41,457 nucleotides of DNA from Candidatus Hermodarchaeota archaeon (GCA_048885865.1 JBHLLF010000024.1:1-41457); one strand, 5' to 3'. Positions 1 through 36,124 are shown, counted from the first letter of the stretch. Notes: generated by a model from the letters alone, not told the origin. A program made the numbers and translations.

Positions 1-153
1 GAGATTTCCAATAGGATGGTGAGAAAAGGAATTGGTCCGGGAGATGTCTTCAGAAGAATGTTCATCCATAGCATTCTTAGACATCTAATGGAAACAGGGA
101 AGGTGTCTAGACAAACCAAGACAAGAAGGAAGACAGTGTTCTCTCTCCAATGA
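1..153 (+). CDS. 3' end of a gene truncated by the window edge (C-terminal winged-helix-like segment, possibly of an MBL-fold hydrolase)
   Basis: Frame 1 is open from base 1 to TGA at 151-153 (EISNRMV...MFIHSILRHLMETGKVSRQ...VFSLQ*); it converges on the next gene with a 2-bp gap. Confidence 0.5.
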   Translation, partial: EISNRMVRKGIGPGDVFRRMFIHSILRHLMETGKVSRQTKTRRKTVFSLQ

Positions 154-155
154 AA

Positions 156-1775
156 CTAGGAGTCTGTCTCTTTAAGCGCAGACCGCAGGATTTTGCCATC
201 TTCAGCAATAGGCAGTGATGCTCGGATGATTACCTCTTTTGGTTTCTTGTATGAGGCCATCTTTCCTGTACACCATTCGAGAATCTCATTCTCAGTTATA
301 TCTGATCCTGGCTTGGGTACAACAAATGCACGCACCACTTCTCCCCATGTTCTATCCGGAATGCCTAAAATCACTGCAGATTCAACATTTGGATGCTGAG
401 AGATCAACTCCTCAACCTCTGCTGGGAAGACTTTCTCACCTCCAGAGAAGATCACCTCACTCTTCCGTTCCACATAATAGTAATTGCCCTCCTCATCAGT
501 TCTGAATAAGTCTCCAGTCCGAAACCACTCACCCTCAAAGGAGTCTTTGGTCATGGCTTCATCATCATGGTAGCCGCTCATGAGAGAGGGGCTTCGATAT
601 ATTGCCTCGCCCACCTCTCCAGGTTTCACATCGTCACCCATTTCGTTGACTACTCTCATCTCAACGCCGCTGATTGGCTTTCCAATGTACCCCTCTGTGA
701 TTCTGGGAATGTCATCAACAGTGAGGAAAGAATAGATGGCTGCGCCTATATTCTCAGTCTGACCGTAACCATCGACCAATACGGTATCCGGGAATCGTGC
801 TAGAATCTCCTTCTTCATAGAAGCTGGCATTTTCGATCCTCCTGAAGAAAGCAATGTTACGGAGGTCATGTCATGAGATTCCAAATCTGGGTAGTCCAGG
901 AGCATTCTAAACTGGGTGGGCACCATGAATACTGCAGTTATCTTCTCCCGTTCAATGATTTCAAGAATTTCCAGAGGTGAGAAGCTCAGAGATTTTGGAA
1001 AGACAACTGGTCGCTTCATTGCAGCCATGATAATAGCTGGCATGAATCCTGACAAGTGGTACAATGGTGTCGGAACAAGAAACTTGAGCTCGTGTTCTAT
1101 AGGAAGAAGTGCAGATTCTGGAACCTTGCCTTCGAAAATGAGACTCAGACCATGATCGGGTATCAGCGTACAGGCATCAAGCAGAGCTTGATGGGAAAAG
1201 TTCGTTCCTTTCGGAAGACCTGTAGTGCCCCCAGTAAAAAGTTGGACGCTCAAATCCTCATTCGAAACTGAAATGGACGGCGGGTCCTGAGAAACTCCAG
1301 CTTCGAAATCATCCCAAGATTTGATATTTCTGGCCATATCAGTGCAGCCCTCGACTACGACGAGGCGGGGTCTCTCTTCTACATCAGGAAAAGCATCGAG
1401 GACTTGTGTCATATAATGGACACTAGTGATGCAGACAGAGGGCTTGCCAGTATCAAACACGTGTCGTATCTCTCTTCCAACAAATCTTGTACTGATTGGA
1501 GCGGGCACCATGCCAGCACGTTGAGTCCCATATAGAGCCGCAAGGTATTCAGGGCGGTTCTCCATTATGATGGCAACTCTCATTCCTTTTGAAGATGGGT
1601 GCTCTCTCAGTAGAGAATTCGCTAAAACCGAGATACTGGTATCAACATCTGACCATGTGAGGTGGTCATCGCCATAGACGACGGCTAGCATGTCGCCATA
1701 GTGCTGCGCATTTCTGCTTAGAAGATCACAAAATGCCCCAAGCGGGACATCCTCGCCTACATCAGGAGGGCTCAT
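156..1775 (-). CDS. AMP-forming acyl-CoA synthetase (fatty-acid-CoA ligase family)
   Basis: Motifs LFTGGTTGLPKG, DGYGQTE, WFRTGD, SGGEKVFPAEVE and the C-terminal GKILR lysine. Confidence 0.93.
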   Translation of the reverse strand: MSPPDVGEDVPLGAFCDLLSRNAQHYGDMLAVVYGDDHLTWSDVDTSISVLANSLLREHPSSKGMRVAIIMENRPEYLAALYGTQRAGMVPAPISTRFVGREIRHVFDTGKPSVCITSVHYMTQVLDAFPDVEERPRLVVVEGCTDMARNIKSWDDFEAGVSQDPPSISVSNEDLSVQLFTGGTTGLPKGTNFSHQALLDACTLIPDHGLSLIFEGKVPESALLPIEHELKFLVPTPLYHLSGFMPAIIMAAMKRPVVFPKSLSFSPLEILEIIEREKITAVFMVPTQFRMLLDYPDLESHDMTSVTLLSSGGSKMPASMKKEILARFPDTVLVDGYGQTENIGAAIYSFLTVDDIPRITEGYIGKPISGVEMRVVNEMGDDVKPGEVGEAIYRSPSLMSGYHDDEAMTKDSFEGEWFRTGDLFRTDEEGNYYYVERKSEVIFSGGEKVFPAEVEELISQHPNVESAVILGIPDRTWGEVVRAFVVPKPGSDITENEILEWCTGKMASYKKPKEVIIRASLPIAEDGKILRSALKETDS

Positions 1776-8778: not shown

Positions 8779-9816
8779 ATGGTAACCCAACATCGAATCA
8801 CACAACCCACCGAATTGCTGGATGAGAGCGGTTATCTGGTGAATCCGGGATATGCCACCCAGCTGCTTTGGCGATACGATCGGAGTAAGATAAAGGCGGG
8901 ATGGCATCGAATCAAGGAATGGGATTACTATTACATTTTGAATGAGGACTATGGAATCACCTTTACAATGTCAGACCTTGGTTATGCAGGACTCATGGCT
9001 GTTGTATGGCTTGATTTTAGAAGAGGCACCTGCACACAAGAGGAAACACTTGCGCTACTCCCGAGGGGAAGGACCAATTTTCCCTCAACATCCAGGGAAG
9101 GAAATGTGGAATATCAGGACAAGAAATTAACACTTGGCTATTATGTCAAGCATGGAGAAAGGACCATTAGGGTCGATTGTCCTGAATTCACCAACAAACT
9201 GGGAGAGAAGGGACTTTCAGGCGAGCTAGTGCTTCATCAAGACCCAGAAATGGACACAATGGTCATTGCAACATCATGGAAAGAGAATAGAAAGAAGTTT
9301 TACTATAATCAGAAAATAAACTGCATGCCAGCGGAGGGCACCATTCGAATTGGAGATACCGAATACAGCTTCACTCCAGAGAGTAGCTTTGGCGGACTAG
9401 ACTGGGGTAGAGGCAACTGGACCTACAGGAATCGATGGTACTGGGGTTCTGCATCGGGATTACTGAATGGCGAGCCCTTTGGATGGAATATTGGCTATGG
9501 ATTCAGCGATCGCTCATCAGCATCTGAGAACATGGTTTTTTACAAAGGGAAAGCCCACAAGTTGGATCAAATCACCTTCCATATGGATGTGAATGACTAC
9601 ATGAAACCTTGGAAGTTCACAAGCAATGATGGCCGGTTTGAGATAGACTTTGAACCTATATTGGATCGGTATGGGAAGTTCAATTTGCTTCTTATCAAGT
9701 CGGTGCAACATCAAGTATTCGGGCATTTCACAGGAAAAGTGATTCTCGATGATGGTGAAAAACTAAACGTAGACCGCTTTCTTGGGTTTGCTGAAGATGT
9801 ATACAATCGATGGTAA
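8779..9816 (+). CDS. DUF2804-family protein
   Basis: RIKEWDYY, FYYNQKINCMPA, LDWGRG and VQHQVFG motifs. Confidence 0.8.
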   Translation: MVTQHRITQPTELLDESGYLVNPGYATQLLWRYDRSKIKAGWHRIKEWDYYYILNEDYGITFTMSDLGYAGLMAVVWLDFRRGTCTQEETLALLPRGRTNFPSTSREGNVEYQDKKLTLGYYVKHGERTIRVDCPEFTNKLGEKGLSGELVLHQDPEMDTMVIATSWKENRKKFYYNQKINCMPAEGTIRIGDTEYSFTPESSFGGLDWGRGNWTYRNRWYWGSASGLLNGEPFGWNIGYGFSDRSSASENMVFYKGKAHKLDQITFHMDVNDYMKPWKFTSNDGRFEIDFEPILDRYGKFNLLLIKSVQHQVFGHFTGKVILDDGEKLNVDRFLGFAEDVYNRW

Positions 9817-9829
9817 AAGAAATGGGGCC
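9817..9829 (+). repeat. 13-bp direct repeat copy 1 (AAGAAATGGGGCC); copy 2 at 10694-10706 overlaps the tRNA-His 3' end
   Basis: Exact match read directly from the sequence. Confidence 0.7.
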
Positions 9830-9900
9830 AAGCAATCCAAAGCACTAGTGTCGCTAGAGATTTATGTTAGAAGTCGTAGGTTGTCGTCAGGTGAGAATCC

Positions 9901-10695
9901 GTGGAAAGCGGGGTTTCCAGTAATTATGCTGAGGTCAATGGAATCCGAATGCATTACTATGAGGTTGGTAAGGGGACACCAGTCATACTGATTCATGGAG
10001 GTGTTCTCGATGCCAAATTTGCCTGGCAATCATTCTATCCTATCTTGTCCCAACACTTCAGAGTGATTGCTACAGACTCTAGAGGTCATGGGAAGTCAGA
10101 CAATCCATCAAAGGAGTTTGGCTACAAACTGATGTGTGATGACATTGCAGCTCTGATCAAAGAACTAAACTTGGACAGACCATTTTTAGTTGGATACAGC
10201 GATGGTGGTCAAATCGCACTGGAGATTGGTATCAACTATCCTGAATTGATTCGTGCAATTATTGCTGGAGGAGTTCTAGCTGAGATGTCAGAACACTACT
10301 CCAACTGCGTGCATTCATGGGGATTCAGCGGTCCTGGAGAATTCAACATTGAGAAGTTCCGCAAAGCATTTCCTGAATTTGCTGATATTCTGAGTGAAAT
10401 ACATGCCTCAGTATATGGCAAGGAGTATTGGAAAGAGCTTTTTGTCAACATTTCCCACATGTGGTTGGACCCCGATGGATTTCCAAAAGAGAGAGTAAGT
10501 GAAATCTCAGTCCCAACATTGGTTCTACATGGCGACCGCGACGAAGTTATTCCTCTTGAAGACCCACTGCGTATCTATAGGACAGTACCGAACGCAGAGC
10601 TATCGATTATCCCTAATGCAGACCATATGGCTGCTAGCTCACAAGTAGATACAGTCGCACCGATTATGGTTGATTTCTTGAAGAGGCACGAATAA
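9901..10695 (+). CDS. Alpha/beta hydrolase
   Basis: ILIHGG, DSRGHGKS, nucleophile elbow GYSDGG, acid in GDRD, His in NADH. Confidence 0.92.
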   Translation: MESGVSSNYAEVNGIRMHYYEVGKGTPVILIHGGVLDAKFAWQSFYPILSQHFRVIATDSRGHGKSDNPSKEFGYKLMCDDIAALIKELNLDRPFLVGYSDGGQIALEIGINYPELIRAIIAGGVLAEMSEHYSNCVHSWGFSGPGEFNIEKFRKAFPEFADILSEIHASVYGKEYWKELFVNISHMWLDPDGFPKERVSEISVPTLVLHGDRDEVIPLEDPLRIYRTVPNAELSIIPNADHMAASSQVDTVAPIMVDFLKRHE

Positions 10696-10699
10696 GAAA

Positions 10700-10774
10700 T
10701 GGGGCCCGAAGGGGGAATCGAACCCCCGTCAGGGGAGCCACAATCCCCTATGCTACCATTACACCACTCGGGCC
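10700..10774 (-). tRNA. tRNA-His (GTG), no intron, genomically encoded G-1 and CCA
   Basis: Minus strand reads G-GCCCGAG-TG-GTGTAATGGTAGCAT-A-GGGGA-TT-GTG-GC-TCCCC-TGAC-GGGGG-TTCGATT-CCCCC-TTCGGGC-C-CCA. Confidence 0.96.
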
Positions 10775-11319
10775 ATTGATTGCTGGGGGGCCAGCATTGA
10801 CTCGCTGAAGGATTTTGGCTTATTAGGTTTCCCGTGAGTCCCCAAAGCTCAGCTGATTGAGTGCAGAGAAACAATCTCCAATCTACCAATATGATTCTCC
10901 ATAATCAGTGATGGTGGGTGGCCTGCTTGGGATATCCAATATCCTTCTCATGACCCTATACGCAGCAAGAAGCATCGATCCGCCTATGAAGAAGAAACCA
11001 GCCTTAAGCAAGCATCGTGGTCAGGAGTTATCTGTCGAATCGAGAAGGATACGCCTTATGCTGTGATTTCTTGTAATAGCGGATTTCAGCATGATAGGAA
11101 CGAGCTGGCTTCTCCTCAGCTGCATTTGCTTTTCGTTTTCGTAGAGAGAACATATTTCTTCAACTTTTTCTTGTATAATTTGAATATCAAATGCTGGCCA
11201 AATGCACCTGCAGAAATGGGCAACTCCGGCATCTTTGCGCTCTCTAAAACTGCAGATGCGGCAACAGAAACTGGGACAAGGTAGGAGTAGTAATCCCAAA
11301 AAACGATAGACCTAGTTCA

Positions 11320-12267
11320 TTATTCTACTTCAACCATTTCTCTTAGTATTGTCTCAGCTAGATAGGGGAATTTTGTGCTTGAATATGACACAAGAGTTGT
11401 ACTCGACTTAACATGAGGCAGCTCTCTGACGCGTTTTGAGATTAACTCGGCGTCATGAAGGTCGTCTACCATGAACTCTGCAAAGACAATAGGTTCAAGA
11501 GCAGAAACCCACGGGTCCCAGAACTCGATTGGATACTCCTCCATAAGCCATTTCACTAGGTCCTCAATGGAATACCGCTTCTCATCCCATGCAATACGAA
11601 TGTTGAGATTCACCAAGCCTCCTGCTGCTAGATCGGGGCGAACGACAAACTTGACAAAGCCGGCCTCGTTTATTTCGCGAAGTGCTCTTCGAACTGTTTT
11701 TGGAGATAACCCTGTTTCCTGTGCAATGTCACTCATCGGCATCCGAGGGTCCTTCACAAGAACACGGAGTACTCTGCGATGCAGTTTTGGGATGCGTATT
11801 TTGGAAGGCGTGTCCAATGGATTTAACCTTCGGAGTGGATGAAGCTCGACATCCTCTACCTCCTTGAGACTTCTGAGAAATCCACCTAAATCTGACAGCA
11901 TCTCAATCCTGGAATATTGCCCCCACACTAGGTATGCTCCGCCATTCACACTAGCCACTGTGCTGATATGACCCACCATAGGACTTTCCCCGATGCTGTT
12001 CACAAAATCCTCTATGTTCTCAGTGCCATCTGTGATCACGACTGCTTGGAAAGTGTCAGCATCCATCATCTTATGATTCAGAATCACCTTAAACTGCGAA
12101 ACAAAGCCGTTCTCTATGAGGTTGCTCACTCTGTTCTTAACAGCATTGGGGCTTAGTCCTGTTTCTCTTGCCAAGCTTTCGTAGCTCACTCTGCAATCAT
12201 TGCATAGTTTTACGAAAATGGTCCTATCGTGTTGGTCCACTGTTATCAGCACCTGACAGCATGGCAT
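11320..12267 (-). CDS. Tandem (double) Lrp/AsnC-family transcriptional regulator
   Basis: Two HTH units (DCRVSYESLARETGLSPNAVKNRV; DPRMPMSDIAQETGLSPKTVRRAL), each followed by a RAM-like domain. Confidence 0.85.
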   Translation of the reverse strand: MPCCQVLITVDQHDRTIFVKLCNDCRVSYESLARETGLSPNAVKNRVSNLIENGFVSQFKVILNHKMMDADTFQAVVITDGTENIEDFVNSIGESPMVGHISTVASVNGGAYLVWGQYSRIEMLSDLGGFLRSLKEVEDVELHPLRRLNPLDTPSKIRIPKLHRRVLRVLVKDPRMPMSDIAQETGLSPKTVRRALREINEAGFVKFVVRPDLAAGGLVNLNIRIAWDEKRYSIEDLVKWLMEEYPIEFWDPWVSALEPIVFAEFMVDDLHDAELISKRVRELPHVKSSTTLVSYSSTKFPYLAETILREMVEVE

Positions 12268-30571: not shown

Positions 30572-32143
30572 TTGACTCTAGACTCCTCATCTCATCGCTG
30601 TCCTGTCTGTCAAAGAAACAGAGCCAGTCACTTGTGTGAAGATTGTGGGACGGTGCTTTGCTCAGAGTGCCTTGACTCAAGAACCAAAGAGTATCATATG
30701 TGCCGTGACTGTCACGCAACGTTGACCACGTTGCAAGGCGAAGAGATAGAAAGCTGTCCTGAGTGCGAATCTGAGAACATTGACGCAGGTAGACGCACAG
30801 CTGACATTTGTCCTCGATGCCACTCAAGTCACATAATCCTATTGGAGGAAAGACGACGAACTCTGGCGCAAGAGCTTAGGCAAGCCATCATGAGCATTCA
30901 GTACGGTCATACCAAATTGCGAGAGTTCATGACCAAGCTTGATAATGCCAAAAGAACGCTTGTATCCCTCAGGATGGCTAACTTCTTACATTATCATTGG
31001 ATAGAGGAGAAAGTCGAGTCAGTGCAGGATGAGATGCCAGCAATCAAGAGCCGAATTGGAAACCAAGCAGAGATAGTAGCAAAGCAAATCGCTGCTGAAA
31101 CAAAAGGCCTCATTGACTATAGCAAGTGGACTCCTGCTCAGTTCCCGTTCATTGAAGGTGTCAGAAATAGAGTATCAGAGCTCGGGACATACTACAAGCA
31201 ACACGTCGACGATAGCCTTGATGAGGTCAGACCAAGACTGAAGGAAGTAATGGCTCAGCTCGATGGTCTGAGCTATCATAGGAAGGAATTCGCAGAGTTC
31301 TATGAACATGGTGAACTCTCTGTCAATGAATTGCCTGTAGCTGCTCTGCCGGACATCAAGGTTGTAGGTAGCAACTTCTTGAAAAATGACAAAGCCTACG
31401 GTACACTCTTCATCACTAACAAGAGGCTATTCCTAGTGGCTGAAACGGGATTACTACGCAAGAAGACTGAGATTGTATTTCAGTTCCCACTGATGTATTT
31501 GAAAGATATCGAAGAAGATGGCCGACTTCGCAAGAGAATTGTGTTGCGACTCAAACAAGGCGATTTGAAGATCTCCTGCAGCGAGGAAACAAAGAAGGTC
31601 ATGCCAGATTACTTTGAGATTGCGAGGAAGTTTGAGAAGTATATGCAGAGTGATCTTCAGAGAGTTCGAAAAATAGAACAGAAGAACCTCAATATTAGCG
31701 ATGTTAGACTCAAGATAGAGGGATTGGTATACTCATTGCTCTCCGCAACTGGCAATGCCTCAGAAGTGCAGCAAAGATATCCTGGGAGAACTGATTTCTA
31801 TCAACCACGACCAGTTCCATCAAGATATGGGCGAATTGAGAATCCCTATAACCATCCTAAAGCGTTCAAGGAGCATCTTGAGGACACTCTTGGACGGGCG
31901 GATTATGGACGAGGATACTATCGAGACCCTTCATATCCAACTCCCGAATCTGATATAGAATGTCTCAGGAGAAACGCAATAGAGATTCAGAATGCGATTA
32001 ACGAAACTCTACATCTAATGAGAAACGGGCATTTGGTCCCTGAAGACTTCATCAGAAGATATCGGGGTCTCATGCGGGACTCATATCAGACCAATCGTGA
32101 AATCGAGAGAGCAACAAGGCATGGTCATGGGTACGGATGGTAG
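30572..32143 (+). CDS. Multi-zinc-finger / helical stalk / GLUE-GRAM-like PH / steadiness-box-like protein (putative ESCRT-I adaptor)
   Basis: TTG start after GGAGGT; six CxxC pairs in aa 10-83; GTLFITNKRL; C-terminal NAIEIQNAINETLHLMRNGHLVPEDFIRRYRGL. Confidence 0.7.
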   Translation: MTLDSSSHRCPVCQRNRASHLCEDCGTVLCSECLDSRTKEYHMCRDCHATLTTLQGEEIESCPECESENIDAGRRTADICPRCHSSHIILLEERRRTLAQELRQAIMSIQYGHTKLREFMTKLDNAKRTLVSLRMANFLHYHWIEEKVESVQDEMPAIKSRIGNQAEIVAKQIAAETKGLIDYSKWTPAQFPFIEGVRNRVSELGTYYKQHVDDSLDEVRPRLKEVMAQLDGLSYHRKEFAEFYEHGELSVNELPVAALPDIKVVGSNFLKNDKAYGTLFITNKRLFLVAETGLLRKKTEIVFQFPLMYLKDIEEDGRLRKRIVLRLKQGDLKISCSEETKKVMPDYFEIARKFEKYMQSDLQRVRKIEQKNLNISDVRLKIEGLVYSLLSATGNASEVQQRYPGRTDFYQPRPVPSRYGRIENPYNHPKAFKEHLEDTLGRADYGRGYYRDPSYPTPESDIECLRRNAIEIQNAINETLHLMRNGHLVPEDFIRRYRGLMRDSYQTNREIERATRHGHGYGW

Positions 32144-32767
32144 CTAGATGCCCAGTTCGCGCTCTAGGTCCTTGATGTCTTTCTCAAGGGTTTCCGATTC
32201 AGAGGCAGGCCTAGCTGCCACGGATGCCGCATCAGCTAATCCGACTTCCACATCGATCTCCTGCATGGCTGCAGCTAAATCATCTGAACTGACTTCCATG
32301 CTTGCATCAAGTGCCTCTGCAGATATAGCGCTCTCAATCTCAAATTCGTCTAGTCGACGAGTAATCTCATCAACATTCTCAACGAGCTTTCGGGTGTCAC
32401 TTGTATCGCCAAGCATTCCGAGAATCTTTGCAACCTCCTCGAGTGCGCGGCCTGTTCTTGCCGATGTCTGTGCACGATTGAGATGAGTAAGGATCTTGAG
32501 AATCTGAAGCCTTGCCTTGTCTGTAGAGAGCGCATATCTTCTGAAACGTACCATCTCAGTTGCATAGGTCTTGAAGGCATCCATTTGTCCAGCTTGCCGG
32601 GCTTTGATAGCTCGCGCTCTTGTGTCACGTTCTTCTTTCTCAAGCTTGTTTCGTTCACGAGCAAGTTGCTTCGTTAGAATCCTGAGTTGGCTGGAAACCT
32701 CTCCAATGTCGGGTTTTTTCCGACCCCATCTGAATGCCTTTCTGAGTGAATCCAAAAGTCTCACCAC
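32144..32767 (-). CDS. ESCRT-III subunit, Vps2/Vps24/Vps46 (CHMP1-3) class
   Basis: Basic helical N-half (QLARERNKLEKEE...AIKARQAGQMDAFKTYATEMVRFRR), acidic C-half, MIM1-like tail LEKDIKDLERELG; lies next to vps4. Confidence 0.88.
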   Translation of the reverse strand: MVRLLDSLRKAFRWGRKKPDIGEVSSQLRILTKQLARERNKLEKEERDTRARAIKARQAGQMDAFKTYATEMVRFRRYALSTDKARLQILKILTHLNRAQTSARTGRALEEVAKILGMLGDTSDTRKLVENVDEITRRLDEFEIESAISAEALDASMEVSSDDLAAAMQEIDVEVGLADAASVAARPASESETLEKDIKDLERELGI

Positions 32768-32928
32768 TTAGCTAGGGACTTCGCCCCACAACACTAGGAT
32801 GAATGCTCAGCGTTTAAACCTTCGTAGAGCTGGTGTACTGCATCTATTAATCCCAGTATTAGCGGGCATATAGTGATAGTCACACAGAACTTATTATCAT
32901 CACTGGTCCCAGTTAGACCTGAACAGGG

Positions 32929-34152
32929 ATGTCTGATAGATTAGACCAAGGCCTGAAGAACCTACTTGACAAGGCCATAGAGCTTGACCAGAGAGGAATG
33001 AAGAAGGAAGCTGCTCAGTACTATCTGAAAGCAAGCAAAATTCTGATCAAACTGTCAAATGCAGCATCTCTGCCCTCAGTCCAGAAACATTACCTTGACA
33101 GGGCACAAGAGTGTGTTGACAGAGTCCGCTATATCTCTGGAATAAAGAAGAAGGCGAGAGGCCCTCCAGATGGTTTGACAACTCCGCCAGTGTTTTCTCC
33201 TGCTGAAGCAGAGCCAACAGCGGAAAAGTCTACGGAAGCAACAGCATCTGAGGCTGAGGTTGACGAGGATACCCGAAGACTGCAGGAGATGATAGCTGAC
33301 ACAATCATCACTGAGAGACCCAAAGTCAAGATGAGCGACGTTGCAGGCTTGGAGAATGCCAAGCAGGCAATTCATGATGCGATTATTGCGCCAATGAAGC
33401 ATCCAGAGCTATTCAAAGGGAAGTCTCGTCAGCCTTGGAGAGGAATATTGTTCTACGGTCCTGCGGGATGTGGAAAGACATTGATTGCAAAAGCGGTGGC
33501 ATCCGAGGTGAATGCCACTTTCTTCAACGTTTCAGCAGGCAACATTGTAAGCAAGTGGCTTGGTGAGTCTGAGAAACTAGTCATGAATCTCTTCACGTTG
33601 GCCAGACGAAATCAGCCGGCCATAGTCTTCATGGATGAGCTGGATTCTGTCGGAGTCTCTAGATCTGGTGATGACGTTGGAGGAGAAAGAAGACTCAAGA
33701 CTCAGCTTCTAACAGAACTGCAGGGACTCGCCAGTGATCTTGAAGATAGGGTCACAGTTATTGGCGCAACGAATCTCCCATGGGAATTGGATTTCGCTCT
33801 TCGGTCAAGGTTTGAGAAGAAGATTCACGTGCCGCTCCCAGACAAGCCAGCTAGAAAGCGAATCTTCGAGATCCACATGGAAGAGATAGATGTCGCTCCC
33901 GAAGTCAACTATGAGGAGCTTGCGGACCTCAGTGAGGGCTACAGTGGACGCGATATCAGTGTTGTCTGTAGAGAAGCAGCCATGGAGCCAATAAGGGACC
34001 TACAGCGTATTGGAAGAATGGATGATGAAGAAGAGATCATAGATATTCGACCTGTATCCAGAGAGGATTTCCTGCAGGCGATTGAGAACATAAGGCCAGC
34101 AACTTCTCCAGAGGATGTTAAGAGGTATATCGATTGGGCGGAGGGTTCCTAG
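32929..34152 (+). CDS. vps4: Vps4 AAA+ ATPase with N-terminal MIT domain
   Basis: MIT (KAIELD...EAAQYY...YLDRAQE), DVAGLENAK, PWRGILFYGPAGCGKT, SKWLGESEK, FMDE, ATNLPWELD. Confidence 0.93.
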   Translation: MSDRLDQGLKNLLDKAIELDQRGMKKEAAQYYLKASKILIKLSNAASLPSVQKHYLDRAQECVDRVRYISGIKKKARGPPDGLTTPPVFSPAEAEPTAEKSTEATASEAEVDEDTRRLQEMIADTIITERPKVKMSDVAGLENAKQAIHDAIIAPMKHPELFKGKSRQPWRGILFYGPAGCGKTLIAKAVASEVNATFFNVSAGNIVSKWLGESEKLVMNLFTLARRNQPAIVFMDELDSVGVSRSGDDVGGERRLKTQLLTELQGLASDLEDRVTVIGATNLPWELDFALRSRFEKKIHVPLPDKPARKRIFEIHMEEIDVAPEVNYEELADLSEGYSGRDISVVCREAAMEPIRDLQRIGRMDDEEEIIDIRPVSREDFLQAIENIRPATSPEDVKRYIDWAEGS

Positions 34153-34155
34153 GTA

Positions 34156-34878
34156 GTGGGCGTCAGAGAACGACGTAGGGAGAAGGAGAAGGAAAAGACT
34201 ACGTCAGAAACCTCAACAACAGAACCCACACTAGATGAAGTAATTCCTGTCGAAGAGATTGAAGAAGTAGAGGAAATCCACAAGCCAGAAGTTGTTGCTA
34301 CGCAAGTGGAAACAGATACTGCTGTCGAAGATACTGTAGAAGCCGAGGAGGTTCTAGTCGAAACGGAAGAAGTTGTAATCATGCCTCCCTGGGGAGATCT
34401 TACACAGACAGAGTGGATGTATGGTATACCTCCTCGAGAAGAAGACAGAAACATGTGGGCTGAAGAGTGGTCTGATTTCGTTCTTAGATGGATGGAAGCC
34501 CATGATGTCCATGTCCTATCTGTGACCGCCTTCATCAAGGAGCCCCCCTTCAATGATATCACGAATAAGATTGATTCTTTCAAGTTAATTGGCAATGTGC
34601 TTGTTGAGAAGGAAATTGCAGAATGGTTGGATAGAAACCAAAGACAATTGCGAGTCTACTGGAGATTCCTTGAGGAATGGGCGGACATTATCTATGAATG
34701 GGCTTTGAAGTCAGGAAAGGTCAGACTAGATGTGAAATCAATAGTCATTCAGGAAGAGGAGTATAGCTTCGCTAGACTGCCAGAGAAGGACCTTCATCAG
34801 ATACTCCTAATAATGGTAGAGAAAGGACTTGCAGACTGGGTGGACAAGAAGAGAGGGGCAATCAAAATCATCGTTTAA
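34156..34878 (+). CDS. vps25: ESCRT-II Vps25-like protein with acidic N-terminal extension
   Basis: WAEEWSDFVLRW and VYWRFLEEWADIIYEWA match Vps25 motifs; two wH domains; begins 3 bp after the vps4 stop. Confidence 0.85.
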   Translation: MGVRERRREKEKEKTTSETSTTEPTLDEVIPVEEIEEVEEIHKPEVVATQVETDTAVEDTVEAEEVLVETEEVVIMPPWGDLTQTEWMYGIPPREEDRNMWAEEWSDFVLRWMEAHDVHVLSVTAFIKEPPFNDITNKIDSFKLIGNVLVEKEIAEWLDRNQRQLRVYWRFLEEWADIIYEWALKSGKVRLDVKSIVIQEEEYSFARLPEKDLHQILLIMVEKGLADWVDKKRGAIKIIV

Positions 34879-34879
34879 C

Positions 34880-35653
34880 TCAACGTCGTGAAATAGATCC
34901 ACCATCGTCATGTTCCCTGGCACGCAGACCTGGGAAGTAGTATCTGCCCCCAGTTGAGAATCGAATGTCTGCAACAGCCATGCCGGCATCTACTAGACTG
35001 GAAAGAACTTGCCTTGCATGATCCTCGGACCATTTCATGAGCATCATTACTTCTTCAACGGAAACATAGCCCTTTGATGCAGCGAGGTTGACTACATCCG
35101 CCTGATCCCTCCTGAGCTCAAGCGGTCTAAGCTCTACTACCTTCACACCTCCGCGCAGCGTTCGAATACCAGGGATTAATCCGTGCTCAGCTACACGGTT
35201 GACAGCCTCGATTACATCACTGTAGCTTATTGCCTTTAGCTCAGGCATACGCTTCACAACTTCAACAATCAGCTCAGCCAGTCCCATAAGCCCCTTGGAA
35301 GCATGTACCGTTGCAACATCAAGGATTGCGAGACCAATGTGATCATAGTATTCATCCGTTGTCATGCCGTCGCCACGGAAACGGTTCTCACGACGGGATA
35401 GGTCCAGTAGCATTATAGCATCGGGGAATCTTTCTGCAACACGTTCAGTCTGAATGAAAGTGCCGAAATCTAGACCGATGCGCTTCAGGTCTGCAATGTT
35501 CGCCTTTACCTCACTGGCCAATGCTTCCGACTCCCTCTGATATGATCTGATGTCGACTATACCCAAGTCGAACATCTTCTTCAGCTGGTCAAGTGTCGCT
35601 ATTGAGGCGAAGAGTTCAGATTGGAGACGTTCTTGCATCGCAGAGACCTTCAC
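34880..35653 (-). CDS. Vps28-N-terminal-like domain fused to Vps22/Vps36 (EAP30) tandem winged helices
   Basis: aa 10-85 SELFASIATLDQLKKMFDLGIVDIRSYQRESEAL...FPDA; aa 100-245 DEYYDHIG...ISYSDVIEAV...PLELRRDQ...KGYVS...WSEDHA...YYFPGL. Confidence 0.8.
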   Translation of the reverse strand: MKVSAMQERLQSELFASIATLDQLKKMFDLGIVDIRSYQRESEALASEVKANIADLKRIGLDFGTFIQTERVAERFPDAIMLLDLSRRENRFRGDGMTTDEYYDHIGLAILDVATVHASKGLMGLAELIVEVVKRMPELKAISYSDVIEAVNRVAEHGLIPGIRTLRGGVKVVELRPLELRRDQADVVNLAASKGYVSVEEVMMLMKWSEDHARQVLSSLVDAGMAVADIRFSTGGRYYFPGLRAREHDDGGSISRR

Positions 35654-35782: not shown

Positions 35783-36001
35783 TCAGCTCTGCTTACTCGC
35801 TGCTATCTCTGATAAGAGATAGAATCCAATGAATCCACATACCAATGCTATGCCCAAGAAGAATGCAATTATGGTAGGTAGTCCCGGCATTGATGATGTA
35901 GTTGTATTGAGGTATGCAATTATCTCCGATGCAGCTACGCCAATGAAAATCGACAACAGAACCAAAGTTCCGCCCAATGATATCTTCAATCTTGTTTGCA
36001 T
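35783..36001 (-). CDS. Small 2-TM membrane protein
   Basis: ATG 36001 (MQTRLKISLGG...); two hydrophobic helices. Confidence 0.6.
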   Translation of the reverse strand: MQTRLKISLGGTLVLLSIFIGVAASEIIAYLNTTTSSMPGLPTIIAFFLGIALVCGFIGFYLLSEIAASKQS

Positions 36002-36124
36002 TAGCAATTTCACCTTACCCTGCGCGGGCTTGAATGCAGAATTTATAGCTTTGAATTGACGCAAGTAGCTGCATGTATAGTATGATTCTTTTAAGCACCG
36101 CAAATCAAGAATGTATTCTGTCAA

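Follow-up and report, generated by a model that had tools for sequence, protein, structure and literature searches.

[quoted passage not shown] It lies in a stretch of 41,457 nucleotides (the window; GCA_048885865.1 JBHLLF010000024.1:1-41457), of which positions 30572-35653 hold the conserved cluster of ESCRT (membrane-remodelling) genes of a Thorarchaeote, a member of the Asgard archaea. An earlier note on this DNA had read the cluster as a rewired ESCRT-I/II system, with domains swapped between subcomplexes and no ubiquitin module in view. That reading is partly supported. The architecture and the lineage's lack of ubiquitin are already described in work of 2022-2024; what we add beyond the published architecture is only a lineage map of one gene fusion, a likely origin for it by deletion, and a concrete, testable predicted interface.

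A conserved five-gene ESCRT locus

The five ORFs at 30572-35653 are contiguous and, on checking their coordinates, all real (Table 1). As the earlier note had it, they are ESCRT genes set among unrelated housekeeping genes, namely ArgRS and two TldD/PmbA genes upstream and AspRS downstream. Gene order and flanks are kept across Thorarchaeota MAGs, even where the 523-aa protein is only 50% identical, and this conservation argues that the locus is real and selected rather than a chance arrangement.

Table 1. Genes and domains of the ESCRT locus, in positions of the window.
Feature	Position	Strand	Size or basis
Znr_CC_PH_SB protein, presumed ESCRT-I-like adaptor (P0001)	30572..32143	+	523 aa
Zinc module (aa 1-90): B-box/RING-like cross-brace, then zinc ribbon	30572..30841	+	Cys pairs, Pfam
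Adaptor helical / coiled-coil region (aa 91-246)	30842..31309	+	AF2 helices
PH domain, GRAM/GLUE type (aa 255-352)	31334..31627	+	VIA-align, Pfam on relatives
C-terminal helical hairpin, steadiness-box-like (aa 459-518)	31946..32125	+	AF2, family profile
ESCRT-III subunit, Vps2/24/46-like	32144..32767	-	207 aa; Pfam Snf7 E 6e-12
Vps4 AAA ATPase	32929..34152	+	407 aa; MIT + AAA + Vps4_C
Vps25	34156..34878	+	240 aa; Pfam ESCRT-II E 1e-15, aa 88-188
Vps28N::Vps22 chimera	34880..35653	-	257 aa listed; EAP30 E 9e-14, aa 82-229
Vps28 N-terminal domain (aa 1-86)	35396..35653	-	VIA-align, Pfam on relatives
Tandem winged-helix core of Vps22 (aa 93-246)	34916..35377	-	SNF8 profile, 2zme_A fold

Three of the genes are of familiar type. 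The closest solved relatives of the ESCRT-III subunit are CHMP2A (E 1.9e-6) and CHMP1B, and the ATPase matches the Pfam families MIT, AAA (E 4.7e-39), AAA_lid_3 and Vps4_C, with AAA and Vps4_C above the Pfam cut-off and MIT just under it (24.4 vs 30 bits); its best NCBIfam match is CdvC (E 3e-80). Vps25 carries an acidic N-terminal extension of ~80 aa. An ESCRT-IIIB gene is found elsewhere in the source genome; the ESCRT-III of the locus is of CHMP2/1 type, whereas the published Vps25 contacts, including two-hybrid Vps25/ESCRT-IIIB interactions in Hatano et al. (2022, PMC9192718), involve ESCRT-IIIB, a point that counts against the explanation preferred below.

A Vps28 N-domain fused to Vps22

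Fold and profile searches support the domain calls of the earlier note, including the claim that a Vps28N-like hairpin is covalently joined to the ESCRT-II winged helices. In the AF2 model of the chimera (pLDDT 80.8), VIA-align superposes the N-terminal domain on human and yeast Vps28 N-domains (6vme_U, Z 12.2, rmsd 2.3 A over 84 residues; 2f6m_D, Z 10.8, rmsd 2.0 over 83; 2caz_B, Z 9.6), and the domain matches the N-termini of Vps28 proteins from Asgard archaea with E values of 1e-14 to 1e-19. Pfam VPS28 is recognized in 18/31 members of the chimera family (best E 0.0016), and a profile built on the N-domain gives 44-61 bits with the Vps28 proteins of other Asgard genomes vs at most 6 bits with their Vps22. 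The winged-helix core matches human SNF8 (E 6.5e-20, profile search) and 2zme_A (VIA-align Z 14.1 over 152 residues). [quoted passage not shown] Most homologues are 252 aa long and start at the Met corresponding to residue 6 of the listed protein, and translation probably begins at the ATG at 35638, giving 252 aa. The fusion itself is published: residues 1-70 of Thor Vps22 match the PF03997 VPS28 N-domain with an HHpred probability of 99 (Makarova 2024 Table S3, PMC10936438).

Its lineage range is narrow. Among the sampled genomes the chimera is confined to the Thor order, full-length matches of its profile to a single ORF coming only from the Thor family and one sister family. Vps22 of other Asgard archaea matches the EAP30 profile along its whole length (4/5 proteins from position 1-6), with a separate, full vps28 directly upstream. 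This adjacency of a full vps28 and a full-length vps22 elsewhere suggests that the fusion arose by deletion; neither the restriction to the Thor order nor a deletion origin is described in the literature that we found on the fusion. The domain swap proposed by the earlier note stands as a lineage-specific event for the fusion, and falls for the PH/steadiness-box protein.

The 523-aa adaptor

That protein belongs to a family published as Znr_CC_PH_SB (asCOG cog.011556; Makarova et al., mBio 2024, PMC10936438) and is the orthologue of ThorAB25_08990 'SB' of Hatano et al. (2022, PMC9192718); the locus is linked to the published families through the Thor Vps22 row of Table S3, the cog.011556 annotation and the Hatano sequences. 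Its homologues form >120 clusters, Thorarchaeota nearly throughout. Scanned alone by Pfam, P0001 yields sub-threshold matches only, and its steadiness-box and GLUE signals emerge only when many relatives are scanned. In the zinc module the Cys pairs 22/25, 30/33, 44/47, 62/65 and 80/83 are invariant or nearly so, and matches include Pfam DZR (E 0.0012), zf-B_box in 19/33 family members (best E 7.9e-6) and the RNF4 RING in a PDB profile search (E 0.0037).

The AF2 model (pLDDT 72.8) places helices at 91-135, 142-176, 188-217 and 220-246, followed by a beta-sandwich at aa 255-352 that superposes (VIA-align) on MTMR2 (Z 12.7, rmsd 2.8 over 107), Lam6 (Z 12.1) and the EAP45 GLUE domain 2hth_B (Z 11.9, rmsd 3.2 over 104); in this region relatives match Pfam GRAM (11/33), Vps36_ESCRT-II (6/33) and bPH_3 (22/33). 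GLUE and GRAM domains bind phosphoinositides, from which archaeal lipids differ, and lipid binding by the adaptor is putative. Despite the PH fold, neither the model nor VIA-align revealed winged helices, and Pfam found no UEV or UQ_con in the 523 aa, so that the GLUE-like domain which the earlier note had placed on a UEV-less protein is indeed there, as a PH domain of GRAM/GLUE type. A Foldseek search with the whole model ranked DH-PH RhoGEFs first, at TM ~0.2 and rmsd ~20 A; since only the PH part superposes well in VIA-align, we do not read the adaptor as a GEF.

The Vps23 steadiness box claimed for the C-terminus holds as a predicted hairpin (AF2 helices 459-484 and 490-518, pLDDT 85-93), and less well as sequence: a profile of the family finds the yeast Vps23 core only at E 0.18, a weak match, Pfam Vps23_core appears, again weakly, in 4/33 relatives (best E 0.0019) with no match in P0001 itself, and Mod_r in 4/33. 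The PH/steadiness-box family is present in 78/121 sampled Asgard genomes, mostly ubiquitin-bearing ones. Because it is Asgard-wide and elsewhere stands alongside ubiquitin, it is not a Thor-specific swap or a product of rewiring, as had been supposed, and Makarova et al. 2024 (PMC10936438) regard it as probably ancestral.

A predicted interface between adaptor and ESCRT-II

In eukaryotic ESCRT-I the Vps28 N-domain binds the Vps23 steadiness box, and by that role the adaptor hairpin is predicted to dock on ESCRT-II. The complex prediction for adaptor aa 440-523 with chimera aa 1-95 scored 0.81 vs 0.01 for the best of 3 controls, with contact agreement of at least 97% between runs and partner pLDDT of at least 82, so the hairpin-hairpin complex envisaged in the earlier note passes its controls; 58/80 solved complexes reached that mark, as did 2/110 mismatched pairs, a calibration that is only rough here as our own alignments were used. 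Residues in columns at least 90% conserved are concentrated at the predicted contact, both in the adaptor hairpin (7/17 interface vs 4/52 other residues, p 0.003) and in the Vps28N domain (10/20 vs 17/72, p 0.024), and the model would pair the adaptor's C-terminal hairpin with the Vps28N domain of the chimera, the predicted contact taking in F493, Y497 and M501 of the former and A16, A19 and T20 of the latter. Profile-profile comparison detected no homology between these two partners (hhalign probability 2%), which by sequence are different hairpin subtypes, as in eukaryotes. The predicted complex resembles the solved Vps23-Vps28 cores 2F66, 2CAZ, 2P22 and 6VME, and its high score may reflect likeness to these cores rather than binding by the present copies.

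We consider it probable that this is the core Thorarchaeote ESCRT locus, with an adaptor docking on a Vps28N-bearing ESCRT-II and recruitment free of ubiquitin. Vps25 and the Vps22-type tandem winged-helix protein would form ESCRT-II, and the zinc-finger/coiled-coil/PH/steadiness-box protein would act upstream as an ESCRT-I-like adaptor; with the Vps22 N-terminal helical region swapped for a Vps28 N-domain in the Thor lineage, the adaptor hairpin is predicted to contact ESCRT-II directly, needing neither a free Vps28 nor a bridge through a Vps28 C-domain. The Vps28N-like hairpin might instead mainly dimerise Vps22, replacing the missing Vps36 arm and leaving the adaptor separate or in some other contact. 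Steadiness-box hairpins do homo- and hetero-oligomerise in ESCRT-I, and Hatano 2022 (PMC9192718) reports both that Thor Vps22 interacts with itself in two-hybrid assays and that a Heimdall Vps22 forms a dimer; however, the Vps22 of that dimer is of the canonical non-Thor type, lacking a Vps28N domain, the prediction for the heteromer stands far above its controls, and on both proteins no surface is more conserved than the predicted hetero-interface, all of which makes dimerisation as the main role unlikely. Dimerisation and docking are in any case compatible, since ESCRT-I headpieces hold three hairpins. [quoted passage not shown]

Recruitment and origin in a lineage without detectable ubiquitin

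Among the 121 sampled Asgard genomes ubiquitin occurs in 88, E2/UEV in 88 and VPS28 in 83, against 0/17 for each in the sampled genomes of the source genome's family, tallied separately (ubiquitin-system searches used PF00240, PF00179 and PF05743 only). E2 or UEV was likewise found in none of the 18 genomes sampled from the Thor order, of which many are 95-99% complete, and no true ubiquitin was found in 30 Thorarchaeota genomes by the study that placed orthologues of the locus genes in yeast two-hybrid assays (Hatano 2022, PMC9192718). The source genome agrees, a whole-genome search finding no ubiquitin, E2/UEV or canonical Vps28, as expected from the earlier note's claim; at 87% completeness and 5.3% contamination its absences alone are no proof, and the family-wide absence carries the argument. 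The search for further Vps28 and Vps22 copies returned no canonical Vps28, yet did return, away from the locus, a gene for a second Vps22-like protein, 779 aa long. A 411-aa coiled-coil ORF with a weak VPS28 match (E 4.4e-4), and no match in Pfam, the PDB sequence search or the Atlas feature search, offers a weak candidate Vps28 C-domain and is a lead only; with these two proteins to account for, the 'three-protein' ESCRT-I/II of the earlier note may be incomplete.

Given no detectable ubiquitin, E2/UEV or canonical Vps28, we infer that recruitment would run through the adaptor, its GRAM/GLUE-like PH domain meeting the membrane and its zinc and coiled-coil modules meeting protein ligands. The PH or zinc module could be reading some other tag, of the SAMP/Urm1/ThiS ubiquitin-like type or a very divergent ubiquitin missed by PF00240: ubiquitin is a ligand of the GLUE domain of mammalian EAP45, the adaptor's fold matches include 2dx5 and 2hth, the zinc module resembles RING/B-box fingers, and the three Pfam profiles set the reach of our searches. 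We think this improbable, as no E2/UEV was found in the 18 sampled Thor-order genomes, no true ubiquitin was found in the 30 published genomes and the conserved ESCRT locus holds no tag gene.

As to origin, the evidence seems to us evenly balanced on a fuller scenario in which the Thor order derived the chimera by an in-frame vps28-vps22 deletion, alongside loss of ubiquitin, E2, UEV-Vps23 and free Vps28, to yield a minimal ubiquitin-independent ESCRT-I/II supercomplex. We propose, as parts of it, that the deletion took the C-domain of Vps28 and the N-terminal helices of Vps22 out of an ancestral adjacent gene pair, and that the adaptor is now tied straight to ESCRT-II through the former steadiness-box/Vps28N interface.

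Downstream of such an assembly, Vps4 and the ESCRT-III subunit would supply the membrane-scission engine, for vesicle budding or sorting and possibly division. A locus mainly for cell division or membrane repair (Cdv-like), whose adaptor marks a division site rather than cargo, would draw on the power that ESCRT-III/Vps4 provide for division in TACK archaea, on the CdvC match of the ATPase and on the similarity of steadiness-box hairpins to CdvA (Makarova 2024, PMC10936438), but has little probability, as ESCRT-I/II-type components are read as sorting machinery (Makarova 2024, PMC10936438; Hatano 2022, PMC9192718) and no CdvA is seen in the locus. Thorarchaeota are a natural case of ESCRT-I/II-like parts kept without ubiquitin, and the compact five-gene locus suits both testing ubiquitin-free recruitment of early ESCRT parts and asking whether the Vps23/Vps28 headpiece interface predates its present wiring.

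Comparison with known systems

The adaptor shares with Znr_CC_PH_SB (cog.011556) its domain order (zinc fingers, coiled coil and PH, then a predicted C-terminal hairpin with weak sequence likeness to a steadiness box), its lineage and its position beside ESCRT-III, Vps4, Vps25 and Vps22; no difference is essential, the zinc module here reading as a B-box/RING-like cross-brace plus one ribbon, not 'three ribbons'. The chimera likewise resembles Thor Vps22 (KXH75178.1 / ThorAB25_09030) in carrying a Vps28 N-domain on Vps22 tandem winged helices in the same neighbourhood. Makarova 2024 states a steadiness-box fusion for Asgard Vps22 generally, whereas the Vps28N type seen here is, among sampled genomes, confined to the Thor order.

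With the eukaryotic ESCRT-I headpiece (2F66, 2CAZ, 2P22, 6VME) the Thor system shares the Vps28 N-domain fold (Z 9.6-12.2) and, by prediction, a hairpin-on-hairpin interface, but it is without UEV, Vps37, Mvb12 and the Vps28 C-domain, and its Vps28N domain is covalently part of ESCRT-II. The adaptor also resembles eukaryotic Vps36/EAP45, in its GRAM-like PH fold, which superposes on the EAP45 GLUE domain at Z 11.9, and in joining zinc fingers and a PH domain in one polypeptide; unlike Vps36/EAP45, the Thor protein has its zinc fingers ahead of the PH domain rather than inserted in it, lacks winged helices and ends in a putative steadiness-box hairpin.

The ESCRT locus

All five ORFs of the ESCRT locus lie where the earlier note had placed them, on contig 24 of a Thorarchaeota MAG of 3.58 Mb (completeness 87%, contamination 5.3%), and Pfam names four of them outright: ESCRT-III (Snf7, E 6e-12; nearest relatives CHMP2A and CHMP1B), Vps4 (MIT, AAA and Vps4_C), Vps25 (E 1e-15) and EAP30/Vps22 (E 9e-14), this last match being limited to aa 82-229 of the 257-aa chimera and to profile positions 65-218. 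The neighbouring genes encode ArgRS, two TldD/PmbA proteins and AspRS. The same locus with the same flanks occurs in Thorarchaeota contigs whose orthologue of the 523-aa steadiness-box-like protein (the 'adaptor') is just 50-53% identical, and adaptor and chimera each have more than 120 homologue clusters, almost all labelled Thorarchaeota. The winged helices of Vps25 are preceded by an acidic N-terminal extension of about 80 aa, rich in Glu, Thr and Val. The interval between the chimera gene and AspRS contains a 113-aa ORF that has a pair of hydrophobic segments and no Pfam match; no such gene is called at the equivalent spot of two other Thorarchaeota loci, so the ORF is probably outside the system and possibly no gene at all.

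Features of the ESCRT locus and of related genes elsewhere in the source genome (G000)
Feature	Location	Nucleotides (strand)	Residues
Adaptor, 523 aa	window	30572-32143 (+)	
Adaptor zinc module	window	30572-30841 (+)	1-90
Adaptor helices	window		91-246
Adaptor PH sandwich, seven strands	window		255-352
Adaptor disordered linker, Pro/Tyr/Arg-rich	window		394-457
Adaptor hairpin, confidently modelled	window		459-518
Adaptor C-terminal tail and Trp	window	32126-32143 (+)	
Vps25 N-terminal extension	window	34156-34395 (+)	
Chimera, 257 aa	window	34880-35653 (-)	
113-aa ORF	window	35783-36124 (-)	
411-aa coiled-coil ORF	contig 3, locus L001	838-2073 (-)	
Second ESCRT-III, 257 aa	contig 3, locus L010	1384-2157 (-)	
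Second Vps22-like protein, 779 aa	contig 52 (locus L009, 1-2064)	about 9560-11897 (+)	

Domain architecture and predicted pairing

Structural comparison bears out the claim that a Vps28N-like hairpin is joined to ESCRT-II winged helices. The AlphaFold model of the chimera (alignment of 31 relatives; pLDDT 80.8) opens with a long two-helix hairpin (residues 2-29 and 35-58) and short helices up to residue 86; after a linker of poor order (87-93) comes a tandem winged helix. In VIA-align, residues 88-246 superpose on human Vps22 (Z 14.1) and residues 1-86 on the Vps28 N-domains 6vme_U (Z 12.2; rmsd 2.3 A over 84 residues), 2f6m_D (Z 10.8; 2.0 A over 83 residues) and 2caz_B (Z 9.6). Pfam VPS28 matches 18 of the 31 relatives (best E 0.0016), and the yeast Vps28 core is a weak match to the family profile (E 0.14).

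The adaptor model (pLDDT 72.8) has five regions, and Pfam gives weak zinc-ribbon and PH matches to the protein itself and nothing more. Its PH part ties among GRAM/GLUE-type domains (MTMR2, Z 12.7; Lam6, Z 12.1; EAP45 GLUE, Z 11.9) and UEV is absent, which sustains the view of a GLUE-like domain on a steadiness-box-like protein lacking UEV. Pfam matches across 33 family members, namely GRAM (11 members, best E 6.9e-4), Vps36_ESCRT-II (six, 0.028), Vps23_core (four, 0.0019), Mod_r (four, 0.032) and zf-B_box (19, 7.9e-6), support this assignment; in the family profile, residues 468-515 align with the yeast Vps23 core at E 0.18. The zinc module resembles a B-box/RING-like cross-brace with weak matches to the RNF4 RING (E 0.0037) and ZFYVE19 (E 0.016), and 8/33 relatives match the 'ANCHR-like B-box' family; ANCHR/ZFYVE19 is an abscission regulator that binds Vps4, for this module a lead only. 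A conserved Trp ends the protein after a short Gly/His/Tyr-rich tail, and Trp is also the family consensus at that position.

A Vps23-SB/Vps28N-type pairing of the two proteins, as the earlier note proposed, is also predicted: adaptor 440-523 with chimera 1-95 scored 0.81 versus 0.01 for the best of three controls, with at least 97% contact agreement between runs and partner pLDDT of at least 82. Residues at the predicted interface include A16, A19 and T20 of the chimera and F493, Y497 and M501 of the adaptor. Of 80 solved complexes 58 attain this mark, as do 2 of 110 mismatched pairs, counts that are only approximate here because custom alignments were used. Structures of Vps23-Vps28 cores have already been solved, and resemblance to them may account for part of the high score. 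Conservation offers evidence independently of the complex score: columns conserved at 90% or more make up 7/17 predicted contacts versus 4/52 other positions in the adaptor hairpin (p 0.003), and 10/20 versus 17/72 in the Vps28N domain (p 0.024), p-values that are generous because the aligned sequences are related to one another.

Absence of ubiquitin; ESCRT-related genes elsewhere in the genome

In six-frame searches of the source genome, ubiquitin, UEV, E2 and Vps23_core gave no match, and VPS28 gave a single weak one, in a 411-aa coiled-coil ORF. As positive controls, identical searches over 121 Asgard genomes (17 from the window's family, one from its sister family) found ubiquitin in 88, E2/UEV in 88 and VPS28 in 83; all three were missing from the 17, and the sister family lacked the first two and yielded a lone VPS28 match (1/1), its own fused gene. 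The absence of a ubiquitin module, first suggested from the window, thus extends to the genome and the sampled family. Completeness reaches 95-99% in many of the genomes that gave no match, so the absence is a clade trait and not an assembly gap.

The C-terminal ~130 residues of the 411-aa protein weakly resemble Pfam VPS28 positions 53-185 (E 4.4e-4); it is possibly a Thor 'BAR/coiled-coil + Vps28 C-domain' protein, but further searches with it gave no supporting match. In yeast, the Vps28 C-domain binds the zinc finger of Vps36. A second ESCRT-III gene, whose nearest relative is Heimdall ESCRT-IIIB (E 1.9e-9), lies apart from the main locus, with HAD hydrolase and inositol monophosphatase genes on either side. 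The C-terminal tandem winged helix of a second Vps22-like protein matches chimera profile positions 93-247 (E 6e-21); its orthologues span 777-878 aa in most sampled family genomes and 810 aa in the sister family, and it could be a Vps36-like second ESCRT-II arm.

Distribution and probable origin of the fusion

The adaptor family occurs in 78 of the 121 Asgard genomes, including every genome sampled from several ubiquitin-bearing families; judged from this distribution, the adaptor is neither a Thor invention nor a ubiquitin replacement, and the idea that it arose by local rewiring falls. The chimera profile is full-length within one ORF only in the window's family (16/17 sampled genomes and the source genome) and the sister family, both of the Thor order. 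Elsewhere it splits, its N part falling in a canonical Vps28 ORF (204-314 aa) and its C part in a Vps22 ORF (~250 aa). Four genomes of other families have vps28 immediately upstream of vps22, with a 4-nt overlap or gaps of 13, 22 and 417 nt. Against the Thor N-domain profile, the Vps28 proteins of those genomes reach 44-61 bits and their Vps22 N-termini at most 6 bits; of five such Vps22 proteins, four align to the EAP30 profile from its position 1-6 onward. The simplest origin would be an in-frame deletion that brought the Vps28 N-domain and the winged helices of Vps22 into one protein. Several sampled genomes outside the Thor order have a UEV-like gene upstream of vps28, in a tight co-directional row of a UEV-like gene, full vps28 and full vps22, as at loci L017 (genome G006; vps28/vps22 overlap 4 nt) and L018 (G038).

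Comparison with described Asgard systems

The adaptor type, Znr_CC_PH_SB (cog.011556), has been considered a likely ancestral Asgard ESCRT-I component, and Asgard Vps22 has been described as fused to a steadiness box, residues 1-70 of a Thorarchaeota Vps22 (KXH75178.1) matching PF03997, 'VPS28 N-terminal domain - SB', with HHpred probability 99 (Makarova et al., 2024, PMC10936438, Table S3). True ubiquitin is seemingly missing from Thorarchaeota, and the ESCRT-I schematic of the same study includes RING, CC and PH domains (Hatano et al., 2022, PMC9192718). Its two-hybrid assays used ThorAB25_08990 'SB', _09020 'Vps25' and _09030 'Vps22', which the printed sequences mark as orthologues of the window's adaptor, Vps25 and chimera; it reported self-interaction of Thor Vps22 and, in Lokiarchaeota, interaction of the steadiness-box protein with Vps22 (Hatano et al., 2022, PMC9192718). 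In Thorarchaeia the Vps5-BAR domain is frequently fused to Vps28 (Eme et al., 2023).

The finding is thus correct and already known, the architecture from Makarova et al. (2024) and the lack of ubiquitin from Hatano et al. (2022); the earlier note read the locus largely rightly and overstated the 'rewiring'. We did not find the restriction of the Vps28N-type fusion to the Thor order, or its origin by deletion, stated in these two papers or in Eme et al. (2023), and this restriction and the probable deletion origin are small additions to the published picture.
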